64,000 nt of DNA from contig JAGWUP010000003.1 in the NCBI GenBank assembly GCA_028868375.1, forward strand, positions 95,693-159,692. The letters are read 5' to 3'. The stretch's first letter is position 1; each line of letters begins with the position of its first letter. Origin of the DNA: Elusimicrobiota bacterium. Lineage in GTDB: Bacteria; Elusimicrobiota; Elusimicrobia; UBA1565; UBA9628. The notes under the pieces are model-generated. The model worked only from the letters and a program-made list of their open reading frames with translations. It made no database searches and was not told the origin of the DNA. A program made the position numbers and the translations under genes. Shown here in pieces: positions 6,437 through 19,728 of this stretch.

Positions 6437-7066
6437 TTGCGCAGGCTGCTGCCGTACCTCGCCTTCTCCTACGTGAGCCTGGTCGGAGCGACGACCCGCC
6501 TTATGGTCGTAGGCGAGGAGCGGCGGCGGCGGCTGCGCGCCGGCGCTCAGCGCTTCCTCTACGCCTTCTGGCATCAGCGCCAGGTCTTCTTCACCTACTC
6601 CCATCGCGGCGAGCGCGCCGCGGTCCTGGTCTCTCGCAGCCGCGACGGAGAGCTCATCGCCGAGACCATGCGCCTCTCCCGCATCGCGTCCTGCCGCGGC
6701 TCCTCCTCGCGCGGGGGCGCCGCCGCCGCGCGCTCGATGATCGAGAGCGTCCGCCAGGGCTACGACCTGGCCATCACGCCCGACGGCCCGAAGGGCCCGG
6801 CGCGCGAGGTCAAGCCGGGCGCCTTGTTTTTGGCAAGAGAGCTGGGCATACCGATTCTTCCCCTGACCAACGCCCTGTCCTTGCGCCTGGAGTTTTCCCG
6901 CTCCTGGGACCATTTCCAGCTGCCGCTGCCCTTCGGCCGCGCCGCCATCGTCTACGGCGAGCCGATCTGGGTGGGCCCGGACGATCAGCTGGAGGAGAAG
7001 GCCGCCGAGCTTAAGGCCTCGCTCGACTTAATCACCGCCGAAGCGGAGCGCCTGGTGGGCCGCTGA
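6437..7066 (+). CDS. DUF374 / lysophospholipid acyltransferase family (LpxJ-like lipid A secondary acyltransferase candidate)
   Basis: FWHQR, VLVSRSRDGELIA, RGSSSRGG, ITPDGPKGP, SWDHFQLPLPF motifs; coupled to waaA. Confidence 0.85.
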   Translation: MRRLLPYLAFSYVSLVGATTRLMVVGEERRRRLRAGAQRFLYAFWHQRQVFFTYSHRGERAAVLVSRSRDGELIAETMRLSRIASCRGSSSRGGAAAARSMIESVRQGYDLAITPDGPKGPAREVKPGALFLARELGIPILPLTNALSLRLEFSRSWDHFQLPLPFGRAAIVYGEPIWVGPDDQLEEKAAELKASLDLITAEAERLVGR

Positions 7067-8343
7067 TGGCGCTTCTGCTGCTGTTAGAGGACCTCTTGGC
7101 CCCCTTCGCCGCCGCGGCCGTCGCCCTGCGCTTTCTCCTGTCTTCGCGGCGCTCGGCGCTCAAGGGCCTGCGCGCGGAACTGCCCGAGCGTCTCGGCCGG
7201 CCGGCCCTGCCGCCGGGGCTGGGCAACGAGCGCGTCTGGCTGCACTGCGCCTCGGCCGGCGAGGTCAACGCGGCGGCGGCGCTCGTCCGGGAACTCTCGC
7301 GGCGCGGCAAGGCCGTGCTCCTCACCGCGACCACCGCCGCCGGAAGGGAGCGCGCCCGCGCGCTGGAAGGCGTGGCCGCGGCATTCCTGGCCCCGCTGGA
7401 CTGCGGACCGGCCGTCTCCTCCTTTTTGTCGCGCGCCAAGCCCGGCCTGCTGCTGGTCGTCGAGACGGAATTGTGGCCGCGCATGCTGGAAGCCTCGCTG
7501 CGGCGGGGCCTGCCCTGCGCCGTCGTCAACGCGCGCATGAGCCCCCGCTCCTTTAAGGGCTACCGATTGCTCTCCCCCTTGCTGCGGCCACTGCTGGGCA
7601 GGCTCTCCCTGGTGGCGGCCCAGAGCGAGGAGGACGCCCGGCGCTTCCGCGCCCTGGGGGCCGCTCGCGTCGAGGTGATCGGCAACATGAAATACGACGC
7701 GCCGCTTCCGGCGGCCTCGCTCGAGGCTCAGGCGCGCTTTAGCCTCCTGCGCTGGGAGGGCCGCGCGGTTTTCTGCGCCGGAAGCACCCATGCCGGCGAG
7801 GAGGAGGCCCTGCTCGACGCCTTCGCCGCGCTCGAGGGCGAGCTTAAGCCTTCGCCGCGATTGATCCTGGCCCCCCGGCATCTGGAGCGCGCGCAGGAGT
7901 TGGCGCGGCTCTTGGAGCGCCGGGGCCTCGCCTTCTGCCGCTGGAGCGCCCCCGATCCCGCGGCGCGCATCCTGCTCTTGGACGAGCTGGGGGCCTTGGC
8001 CGCCCTCTACGCCCTTTCCGACATAGCCTTCGTCGGCGGAACCCTGGTCCCCGTCGGAGGCCACAACCTCTTGGAGCCCGCGTTGGCCGGCCTGCCCGTG
8101 CTCTTCGGGCCTCATACCGAGCATCAGGCCGAAACCGCGCGGCGCCTGGAGCGCGGCGGCGGCCTGCGCGTCGAAAGCCCCGAGCGGCTGGCGCCGTTGC
8201 TCTTGGAGCTCTTGGAGCGGCCCGAGCGCAGGCGCAAGCTCGGAGCCGCGGCGCGGCGCACGGCCGAGGACATGCGCGGCGCGACCAGCCGCGCCCTGGC
8301 GCTTCTTGGGCCCATTCTCTCGCCTCAAGTTCTGGGCCCTTAG
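7066..8343 (+). CDS. waaA: 3-deoxy-D-manno-octulosonic acid (Kdo) transferase
   Basis: WLHCASAGE, ETELWP, NARMS, GNMKYD, AGSTH.GEE, APRH.ER, FVGGTL..VGGHNLLEP. Confidence 0.95.
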   Translation: MALLLLLEDLLAPFAAAAVALRFLLSSRRSALKGLRAELPERLGRPALPPGLGNERVWLHCASAGEVNAAAALVRELSRRGKAVLLTATTAAGRERARALEGVAAAFLAPLDCGPAVSSFLSRAKPGLLLVVETELWPRMLEASLRRGLPCAVVNARMSPRSFKGYRLLSPLLRPLLGRLSLVAAQSEEDARRFRALGAARVEVIGNMKYDAPLPAASLEAQARFSLLRWEGRAVFCAGSTHAGEEEALLDAFAALEGELKPSPRLILAPRHLERAQELARLLERRGLAFCRWSAPDPAARILLLDELGALAALYALSDIAFVGGTLVPVGGHNLLEPALAGLPVLFGPHTEHQAETARRLERGGGLRVESPERLAPLLLELLERPERRRKLGAAARRTAEDMRGATSRALALLGPILSPQVLGP

Positions 8344-8559
8344 GACCTGTGACACGATTATATAGACGATTTGGAGGCATGAGCTTGAGGCGATTTCAAG
8401 GCGCGAGGAGGGAGCATGGCGATAGCCATGTGACCGACGAGCAACGAAGAAATCGGCCAAGATCATGCCTCTGCCCTACGCCCGGGCGATTTTGGGCTGC
8501 GCCTGCGTCGCTCCAAAATCGCCTCGGCCAAATTGTCTATATAATCGTGTCACAGGTCC
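8343..8559. mobile_element. MITE-like / palindromic element, 217 bp, 32-bp terminal inverted repeats, flanked by TTA direct repeats
   Basis: GGACCTGTGACACGATTATATAGACGATTTGG (8343-8374) versus CCAAATTGTCTATATAATCGTGTCACAGGTCC (8528-8559): 31/32 complementary. TTA at 8340-8342 and 8560-8562. Several internal stems; no transposase. Confidence 0.8.
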
Positions 8560-8648
8560 TTAGGCCTAAATAGACCTAGGCTCACTGGCGCATGAGAGGA
8601 AGGCCCTGCGGCCCTATTTCTTCCCCCGCGGCCTTTCTAGAATCGGAT

Positions 8649-18720: not shown

Positions 18721-19728
18721 ATGGGTGTGACCAGCTCCAGAACGACCGCGGCCGAGAATTCCCGCCTGCGCCGCTTGGTCGAGCGCTTTCCGGCAAAGAG
18801 CGTGCTGGTCGTAGGCGACTTGATGCTGGACCGCTACATCCGCGGCCACGCCGACCGCATCTCCCCGGAAGCCCCCGTCCCCGTCGTCCGCGTCTCAGAA
18901 GAGAGCTGCATTCCCGGCGGCGCCGGCAACGTCGCCGTCAACATCGCCGCCCTGGGAGGCTCCGTCTCCGTGCTGGGAGTCATCGGCCCCGATGAGGCCG
19001 GCGCGCAGCTGCGGGCCCTGCTCTCCAGCCGCGGCGTGGCCGTCTCCGGGCTCATCCAGGACGCAAAGCGCCTGACCTCCCAAAAATGCCGGGTGATCGC
19101 GGAGCGCCAGCAGGTCGTGCGCTACGACAGCGAGACGCGGGAGCCGCTCTCGCCCCAGACCGAGGCCGCCCTGCTGAACTTGCTGCCGCGCGCCGTGGAG
19201 ACCTGCTCGGCGGTCGTGCTCTCCGACTACGGCAAGGGGGTGCTGCGGCCCCGCCTGCTAGGCGCCGCCGTCCGCTGGGCCAGGCGCCTGTCGCGCCCGG
19301 TGGCGGTCGATCCCAAGCCGGAGCATTTCCGGCTTTATCGGGGCGTGACCTGCGTGACCCCCAACCTGCGCGAGGCCTTCGCGGGCATGCGGCGCGAGGA
19401 AAACGCTTCGCTTGAAGCCGTCGTGGCCTTGGGAAGCGACATCGTGCGCCTGCTGGGCTGCCGCTCGGCCCTGATCACGCGCGGGCCCGACGGAATGTCG
19501 CTCTTCGGCAGAAACGGCAAGCCACGCCACATCCCGACCCGCGCCAGGGAGGTCTTCGACGTCAGCGGCGCCGGCGACACCGTCATCGCCGCGCTGGCGC
19601 TGGCCTTGGCCGCCGGAGCCAGGATCGAGGACGCCGCCGCCCTGGCCAACCACGCGGCCGGCATCGTCGTGGGAAAGCTCGGGACGGCCACCTGCTCGCC
19701 CGCGGAGCTGCTGCGGGAGCTGCGATGA
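18721..19728 (+). CDS. hldA: D-glycero-beta-D-manno-heptose-7-phosphate kinase (HldE/RfaE domain I)
   Basis: VGDLMLDRY, RISPEAPVPVV, GGAGNVA, SDYGKG, DPK, TPN, DVSGAGDTV, VVGKLGTA; no cytidylyltransferase domain fused. Confidence 0.92.
   Translation: MGVTSSRTTAAENSRLRRLVERFPAKSVLVVGDLMLDRYIRGHADRISPEAPVPVVRVSEESCIPGGAGNVAVNIAALGGSVSVLGVIGPDEAGAQLRALLSSRGVAVSGLIQDAKRLTSQKCRVIAERQQVVRYDSETREPLSPQTEAALLNLLPRAVETCSAVVLSDYGKGVLRPRLLGAAVRWARRLSRPVAVDPKPEHFRLYRGVTCVTPNLREAFAGMRREENASLEAVVALGSDIVRLLGCRSALITRGPDGMSLFGRNGKPRHIPTRAREVFDVSGAGDTVIAALALALAAGARIEDAAALANHAAGIVVGKLGTATCSPAELLRELR

Follow-up and report, generated by a model that had tools for sequence, protein, structure and literature searches.

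MITEs (miniature inverted-repeat transposable elements) are usually viewed as stripped copies of insertion sequences (ISs), in which the ends are conserved and the interior is dispensable. Several groups of small palindromic repeats approach this form. Tourist elements such as mPing carry TTA/TAA duplications, and the subgroups of IS5 in ISfinder have their own duplication lengths. The Correia (NEMIS) elements of Neisseria and the ERIC/IRU elements of enterobacteria are palindromic, intergenic, MITE-like repeats that form long hairpins, are cotranscribed and lie at TA-containing targets; neither the Correia nor the ERIC elements extend beyond one genus or family, and both duplicate TA, measure ~100–160 bp and form one stem. 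REPINs are shorter, lack a target duplication and flank the RAYT gene on both sides. Rickettsia palindromic elements (RPEs) are noted for entering genes in frame. Canonical Harbinger elements make duplications of 3 bp and have kinship with the IS5 family (PMC12730594). Here we characterize a 217-bp palindromic element at the stop codon of a waaA-like gene in a 64,000-nt stretch of an Elusimicrobiota bacterium genome (GenBank assembly GCA_028868375.1, contig JAGWUP010000003.1, positions 95,693 to 159,692), hereafter called the window. There is little doubt that this element is a MITE with a target duplication, and it is very likely one copy, truncated in the second of its two arms (arm B), of a non-coding family that carries a conserved folded hairpin and is mobilized in trans. 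The usual MITE pattern is reversed in this family. The family stands out in two respects: its conserved, covarying portion is the interior hairpin and not the ends, and the hairpin is met again in several lineages, joined to many different ends. Because the ends are variable and polyphyletic while the hairpin is kept, function would be carried by the interior.

Sequence inspection and an inverted-repeat search place the element at window positions 8343–8559. Its inverted arms (8338–8374 and 8528–8564; 37 nt, 95% complementary) include the junctions, both of which read CCTTAGG. The terminal inverted repeats (TIRs; 8343–8374 and 8528–8559) are 32 nt long and contain a single G/A difference, which is compatible with a G-U pair. 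The terminal 25-mer of the TIR occurs twice in the 64-kb window, both times as a TIR, whereas shuffles expect no occurrence. The plus strand folds as RNA with a free energy of −137.4 kcal/mol (z = −14.5), a value matched by none of 200 shuffles, and this minimum-free-energy fold contains the arm A and arm B pairings together with the basal stem; the minus strand folds to −119.4 kcal/mol (z = −12.6). The anatomy given in a preliminary description of this DNA, made from its letters alone, thus stands: a 217-bp element with 32-bp TIRs, flanking TTA repeats and two paired interior arms.

BLAST with the element finds 61 places in its own genome (2.9 Mb in 41 contigs, 65% GC, 99.8% complete by marker genes), so that the copy-number check proposed in the preliminary description returned a repeat family and not a single copy. 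With a profile made from an alignment of copies, the count is 63 places, spread over 28 of the 41 contigs: 27 copies are full and internal, 28 are halves at the ends of contigs and 8 are internal fragments. The full-length form measures ~268 bp. Compared with it, the window copy lacks ~48 nt of the top of arm B, between positions 8507 and 8508, and this part has been lost by independent deletions in other copies too; mini-derivatives of ~80 and 177 bp also exist. The copies form at least six subfamilies, the termini of which share little beyond the first bases. Pairing between the left and the right end is nevertheless maintained in each subfamily, and the interiors are 80–90% alike. The depth of the element in Logan contigs from four runs of two studies (mine-drainage and soil metagenomes) is ~7–20 times that of its flanks, and 28 of the 82 contig ends of the genome break near the center of a copy. 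The element family is a main cause of the fragmentation of this assembly. The small contigs C24, C26, C2 and C12 are stretches between two copies.

The consensus fold of 38 diverse copies, obtained with RNAalifold, is Y-shaped. The TIRs form its basal helix, from which extend arm A with a module that we call M1, a short central hairpin and arm B with a second module, M2. Compensatory double changes are present in 76 of the 87 pairs of this fold. In the observed alignment, 92.9% of the cells are paired, compared with 73.4% in shuffled alignments and 33–44% when partners are slid, and the covariation score is 0.511, compared with 0.166 and 0.06–0.10, respectively. None of 500 shuffles reached the observed value on any measure. 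This strong covariation bears out the earlier suggestion that the element is structured. The TIR helix shows compensatory changes in all 27 of its pairs across lineages. The internal helices (double changes in 14 of 20, 10 of 12 and 17 of 20 pairs) have support as good as that of the TIR helix, and their covariation is not explained by the symmetry of transposase binding sites.

Column frequencies reveal that an apparent internal loop in M1 is a continuous helix. Tandem A·G/G·A mismatches are near invariant at alignment columns 70–71/92–93, 66–67/96–97 and 63–64/99–100, and further purine-purine or C·A positions are located below them. These G·A columns are kept in 36–38 of the 38 copies, while the adjacent pairs vary freely: one or two Watson-Crick pairs alternate with the mismatches and switch among copies, as at columns 65–98 (CG in 23, GC in 13 and AU in 2) and 69–94 (GC in 17 and CG in 14). 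The piece of the window copy that is common to single-module elements elsewhere is the ~47-nt hairpin at positions 8400–8446. M2 is an inverted, diverged copy of M1 with its purine-rich version on the minus strand, so that transcription in either direction would yield an RNA with a purine-type module first. We think it likely that the hairpin is a selected functional module. On its 3' side (window positions 8428–8433), an ATG is followed immediately by TGA or TAA in all relatives, ~16–20 nt after a GGAG-rich purine run. This may be a minimal start-stop unit or a mere consequence of the G·U and G·A pairs. Contigs of all four runs include a form in which position 8388 of the window is joined to position 8485, with 96 nt of arm A skipped and direct repeats, GGCGATTT, at 8389 and 8485 bordering the skipped segment. 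The joined form matches ~177-bp genome copies that lack M1 (C12:1276 and C31:93781), which makes it a deletion between the 8-nt direct repeats.

The element is present in 22 of the 41 genomes of its order-level neighborhood and in 61 of 401 genomes, from many families, sampled across the phylum. Our first pattern for named genome records was too degenerate and returned at least 117 loci, of which three were full and three partial copies. Among the matches listed, the full-length ones in named records come from three metagenome-assembled genomes (MAGs) of Elusimicrobia. Beyond this phylum, a ~157-bp relative with GGGTTCG-type termini and one M1-like module was found on three contigs (L103, L114 and L125) of a Desulfobacterales MAG. 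This MAG, labelled Desulfobacterales bacterium S7086C20 (G411, 2.7 Mb), contains 49 matches at 86–100% identity, and in 9 of 11 fetched copies a perfect TTA or TAA is present on both sides. These copies suggest recent activity in another phylum, with an error of MAG binning as a possible alternative. The same MAG also holds mini-derivatives of ~64–96 bp and solo termini. Plasmid records contain no match to the element, and none of 10 pattern matches in viral contigs was real.

A metagenome scan with a specific two-part hairpin pattern returned at least 122 loci, and the hairpin recurs in many soil and groundwater metagenomes. Among the matches listed there are 127 places: 2 are full two-arm elements, 27 are cut by contig ends and 98 match the hairpin top only. 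The metagenomic hairpin is, among these listed matches, the apex of single-module palindromic elements with a median length of 158 bp, a median GC content of 64% and termini of their own. The ends of these elements were located by diagonal extension; an earlier fold-based procedure overshot into GC-rich flanks and left 3 of 82 usable. Among 78 elements with resolvable ends, a script identified 27 clean flanking repeats (16 CTAG, 6 TTA, 3 TAA, 1 TGA and 1 TCA). A further 16, in which extension of the inverted repeat had taken in the palindromic CTAG or TNA, were read by eye, for a total of ~43 of 78, with ~29 CTAG.

To relate the cores to their ends, a maximum-likelihood tree of the core (IQ-TREE, alignment columns 31–271, 38 rows) was calculated. 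The cores group by host lineage, with the copies from the three Elusimicrobia MAGs nested among those of the relatives, while the terminus classes are scattered and polyphyletic. TGTAG termini require four changes on this tree, at least three of which are forced by strongly supported branches, and TGCT termini require two. The scattered termini imply either that one core was joined to different ends several times or that cores have been homogenized within genomes.

The flanks of the copies indicate how the family inserts. Element boundaries were corrected for a 1-nt shortfall of the profile before the flanks were scored. Identical 3-mers are present on both sides of 17 of the 27 full copies (12 TTA and 5 TAA). 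Two copies of subfamily F have CTAG on both sides, bringing the perfect duplications to 19 of 27. Of the remaining copies, four differ at one flank position and four show no match. The target consensus is C-TWA-G: among 15 sites, 9 have C at −1 and 11 have G at +3. Copies with TTA on both sides and copies with TAA on both sides occur within each subfamily. Together with the 63 places in the genome, these duplications agree with the earlier proposal of a non-autonomous mobile element that makes 3-bp TWA duplications in the style of IS5/PIF-Harbinger transposases. The family has the features of a MITE: the elements are shorter than ~500 bp and without coding capacity, have TIRs and a target duplication and exist in many dispersed copies, although an autonomous partner was not found. 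The length and sequence of the duplication and the general look of the ends are the grounds for the IS5/PIF-Harbinger assignment; ends such as GGGCTTGTT... and ...AATAA... resemble, as we take it, those of the IS5 family. We therefore favor, with moderate confidence, mobilization by a DDE enzyme of the IS5 type. In the mechanism that we propose, an IS5/PIF-Harbinger-type DDE transposase acting in trans would move the element by cut and paste with 3-nt staggered cuts. The hairpin would act as a folded single strand, either as RNA in read-through transcripts or as extruded or single-stranded DNA. A protein would probably bind it, and selection would keep it because it helps the element to spread or to persist without harm; one such form would be a highly stable structure in the 3' untranslated region, directly behind a stop codon.

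Several observations weigh against this reading. The preliminary description had proposed to look for empty sites and for a transposase with the same ends, and neither came to light. An empty allele of this locus was not seen in the same-genus genome or in the contigs of the four runs. The same-genus genome has the Kdo-transferase gene without the element, at ~68% identity and with a different, convergent neighbor, and so does not provide a clean empty site; the contigs of the four runs, which drop rare variants, reach 28–30 nt into the element from both sides and none connects the two flanks directly. Furthermore, three copies of two subfamilies (C35:224102, C13:61653 and C35:218635) are inserted in the apical loop of a second palindromic repeat, X. 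The 13 empty copies of X read CCCC-GGA-AGTG (GTA in one of them), whereas in the occupied copies CCCC-AAA or CGTA precedes the element and TC-AGTG follows it. These identical, non-canonical junctions are not a simple TWA duplication. In the metagenomic CTAG class, a fixed flanking tetranucleotide and a duplication are indistinguishable: in a permutation control, 363 of 1539 pairs gave repeats, and this control is uninformative because most metagenomic elements share the flanking motif. The GC-rich core of repeat X itself measures ~95 nt, its 13 copies are >95% identical and an outer inverted repeat often encloses it; the X loci in our genome, outside the window, include C35:64000–64173 and 12 others. 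The minus strand of X is purine-rich and recalls the M1 module, and the element profile does not detect X.

The search for the enzyme counts on the same side. A cognate transposase with the same ends was not found in the element's own genome, its relatives, the complete same-class genome G310, G411 or the metagenomic flanks. Our genome has no match to PF01609 (DDE_Tnp_1), PF13359 (DDE_Tnp_4), PF13586 (DDE_Tnp_1_2), PF13340 (DUF4096), PF13358 (DDE_3) or PF00665 (rve), and BLAST of the genome against itself revealed no long high-identity repeat. PF01609 is absent from the element-rich relatives G006, G010, G022, G025 and G030, several element-rich relatives also lack DUF4096 and a search of five genomes for PF13359 found none. 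The element profile matches none of 17 DUF4096 loci and none of 30 DDE_Tnp_1 loci from relatives. G310 does contain a 1273-bp DDE_Tnp_1 IS in seven near-identical copies (L247, L250 and L252–L254 among our loci), the ends of which are unrelated to those of the element and the duplications of which are 8–9 bp. The solo termini in G411 adjoin ordinary genes. Of 119 open reading frames (ORFs) beside metagenomic copies, one encodes a transposase, and this is of the IS110 type. The absence of a transposase is weak evidence, since MAG binning can lose IS contigs and the contigs are short. We also considered the module as the leader or N terminus ("TDEQ") of a DUF4096/IS427-type transposase and rejected it, as the 17 loci gave no profile match at E ≤ 10. 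A last point against our reading concerns the fold. The TIR helix contains G·U and A·C cells at 28:27; for the base of arm A the figure is 22:6, and for that of arm B, with two invariant G·U columns set aside, it is 11:17. These ratios single out neither a strand nor a molecule, RNA or DNA, on which the fold would act.

Features of the element and of its neighbors in the window
Feature	Position	Strand	Basis
Kdo transferase gene (waaA/kdtA-like)	7066..8343	+	PF04413 Glycos_transf_N, E = 8e-54
Left target copy, TTA, in C-TTA-G context	8340..8342		Sequence and duplications of the family
Left TIR, subfamily A, starting GGACCTGTGACA	8343..8374	+	Helix 1 of the consensus fold
Arm A, basal stem and M1 module	8375..8471	+	RNA fold; consensus helices 2 and 3
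Purine-rich core hairpin of ~47 nt (top of M1) with tandem A·G/G·A mismatches	8400..8446	+	Column frequencies, metagenome scan, Desulfobacterales copies
Central spacer (short GC hairpin here in most family members)	8472..8479	+	Alignments
Arm B, inverted second module M2, truncated	8480..8527	+	Alignment with full-length copies
Right TIR	8528..8559	+	Inverted-repeat search
Right target copy, TTA	8560..8562		Sequence
PDZ and S41 peptidase gene	8592..10526	+	PF03572 and PF17816

The genomic setting of the element is relevant to its possible effect on the host. The window copy lies between two genes of the same strand, 32 nt upstream of the start of the peptidase gene. In a protein atlas, the nearest clusters are mainly Kdo transferases of Pseudomonadota and give no guide to the taxon. 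In the TAG stop of the Kdo-transferase gene (8341–8343), TA comes from the left TTA and G is the element's first base, confirming the position at the waaA stop given earlier. The reconstructed empty site would be CCTTAGGCC, with the stop unchanged because the right flank also reads TTAGG. Within the 3' part of the same gene, positions 8200–8217 are a perfect 9-nt tandem duplication (CTCTTGGAG twice) that is in frame and adds three residues. Genes were called conservatively from GC3, which gave 1840 genes on 71% of the genome. By these calls, a stop codon abuts 10 of the 27 full copies and is overlapped by the duplicated triplet, the arrangement seen at the Kdo-transferase gene. Sites that overlap a stop account for 12.3% of the non-internal CTWAG sites, which gives P(≥9 of 27) = 0.004, and 5.4% of the TWAG sites, which gives P(≥9 of 27) = 7e-6. 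Most of the stop preference arises because the target holds TAG and TAA (on opposite strands) in a GC-rich genome, and copies with the C-TWA-G target thus often land on stops without changing the protein. About a three-fold excess remains beyond this target effect, which could reflect selection or missed genes. The orientation of the copies relative to the abutted gene is 5:5. This use of stop codons by the target matters for gene calling and for the reading of 3' ends in GC-rich MAGs.

These observations bear on the view that the fold is mainly a host-level RNA device after stops, which, once cotranscribed, would shield the upstream mRNA from 3' exonucleases or insulate neighboring genes, much as reported for ERIC and Correia elements, and whose core would be kept by host selection. 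The location of 10 of 27 copies directly after a stop and of the window copy between codirectional genes fits such a role, as does the very stable fold of either strand. The inverted modules, which offer the purine-type module first either way, are in keeping with the lack of an orientation preference relative to the abutted gene. The excess of G·U over A·C in the base of arm A also speaks for it, and the grouping of the cores by host lineage suggests long residence. However, no sigma-70-like promoter or intrinsic terminator was found in the window copy, the G·U:A·C ratio is even for the TIR helix and inverted for the base of arm B, and much of the stop preference follows from the CTWAG target. 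In addition, a benefit to the host poorly explains one hairpin across unrelated hosts and with different termini. On our analysis, a mainly host-level role would be unlikely, if the strongest of the alternatives.

A second alternative concerns the enzyme. The genome contains exactly two Y1_Tnp genes (HUH, IS200/RAYT-like), the only transposase-like genes found, and both adjoin copies: the gene at C37:168611–169366 (minus strand; loci L255/L287) adjoins the copy at 169434, and the gene at C31:19111–20007 (plus strand; locus L256) adjoins the copy at 18881–19102. Each starts 6–70 nt from a copy, and the neighboring copies are without perfect duplications. The 5' end of a gene lies within 100 bp of a copy for 27 of the 1840 genes, which gives P ~2e-4 for both Y1 genes in a test that is post hoc. 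The HUH and catalytic Tyr motifs are kept in one of the proteins and degenerate in the other, which also has a tail with a DnaA-type helix-turn-helix. Both match NCBIfam REP_Tyr_transpos below its cut-off (60 bits compared with 80). It could thus be proposed that a Y1 enzyme mobilizes the element as a single strand by recognizing its hairpins, as in REP/REPIN systems, with the flanking TWA as a cleavage or target motif and not as a duplication from staggered cuts. The hairpin covariation fits recognition of a folded strand, and the missing DDE partner also speaks for this mechanism. Against it, a copy is present within ~1.5 kb at none of 30 Y1_Tnp loci and none of 29 loci of homologues of the C37 protein in relatives, element-rich genomes included. 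Y1 genes occur in 36 of 41 genomes irrespective of the element, and G010 carries the element but has no Y1 match with either query. The agreement of the flanks in 17 of 27 copies, with both TTA and TAA in each subfamily, is as expected from duplication of a palindromic-type target that is hit in either orientation. Nor is there an orientation bias: the copies divide 23:18 by GC-skew sign (p = 0.53; a weak proxy, as skew and gene strand correlate with r = −0.07) and 14:15 by local gene strand, while the genomes screened for chromosome orientation hold too few copies (three in G310 and one each in G160 and G366). We regard mobilization by a Y1 enzyme as improbable and retain the DDE reading. More tentatively, and with doubts that exceed our confidence, a broader scheme can be drawn, in which the ~47-nt G·A hairpin is an undescribed functional module of RNA or single-stranded DNA that serves as the docking site of a protein, possibly a mobilization factor such as the neighboring HUH Y1 enzymes. 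The module would have acquired IS5-type ends repeatedly and spread through several phyla, so that the cargo and not the termini would be the unit of selection.

The covariation might instead be a by-product of the dynamics of DNA palindromes, in which template switching or repair copies one arm onto the other without any selected function and the shared core reflects common descent. All parts of the element are palindromic, the equality of G·U and A·C in the TIR helix is what a DNA-level process predicts and related sequences can exceed shuffles without structural constraint. But correction between arms should erase mismatches, and the G·A columns are maintained in nearly every copy. The control with slid partners preserves relatedness and yet loses most of the pairing and of the covariation score. 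Moreover, the 47-nt hairpin has been retained across phyla and at least 120 metagenome contigs while the termini and lower stems were replaced. We consider this explanation a poor one, slightly behind mobilization by a Y1 enzyme. The view that the element is RPE-like, being translated in frame within host proteins or encoding its own small peptide, can practically be dismissed: the frame open across the window copy that the preliminary description had noted does exist (8349–8573; 74 aa) but has no Pfam match and is uninformative, since GC content alone gives such frames (fully open in 91.5% of 2000 random 268-mers from the same 65% GC genome, compared with 14 of 27 element copies); the open frame differs between copies, and 1-nt indels in hairpin loops shift it between subfamilies; and the copies are intergenic or at stop codons, with no in-frame gene insertion shown: of the called ORFs, two overlap a copy (C31:18881 and C32:265962), and both start inside it.

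The preliminary description did not recognize a named family, and our searches concur: window positions 8000–9000 have no Rfam match at E ≤ 1, three full-length copies have RtT as their only match (E = 0.6; 19.8 bits compared with a gathering score of 45) and six metagenomic single-module loci have no match at E ≤ 0.1. In the literature, represented mostly by abstracts, we found no description of the element, and a literal search for its motifs in papers returned unrelated primers alone. Like the small MITEs derived from IS5 and the Tourist-like PIF/Harbinger MITEs such as mPing, the element is non-coding and of high copy number, with TIRs that start with GG and with TTA/TAA duplications (CTAG in one class). 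It differs in that a search for an autonomous partner sharing its ends gave none, and in that its interior is not the remnant of an IS deletion but a covarying hairpin common to elements with unrelated termini. When compared by description, it shares with Correia and ERIC elements the palindromic, intergenic, long-hairpin form, but it duplicates TWA or CTAG, adopts a two-armed Y here and has a core hairpin that spans phyla. With REP/REPIN and RAYT systems it has in common hairpin repeats that persist without a multicopy transposase, and the two Y1 genes of its genome abut copies; in contrast to REPINs, it has duplications in 17 of 27 copies, a two-armed form of ~268 bp, Y1 adjacency that is on one side and absent at the 59 Y1 loci of relatives, and a RAYT score below the cut-off. 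Finally, RPEs are likewise small, palindromic, multibranched repeats. The resemblance to them that the open frame had suggested proved to be an effect of GC content, and the present element differs in that its copies are located between genes or at stops and its open frames are no commoner than chance.

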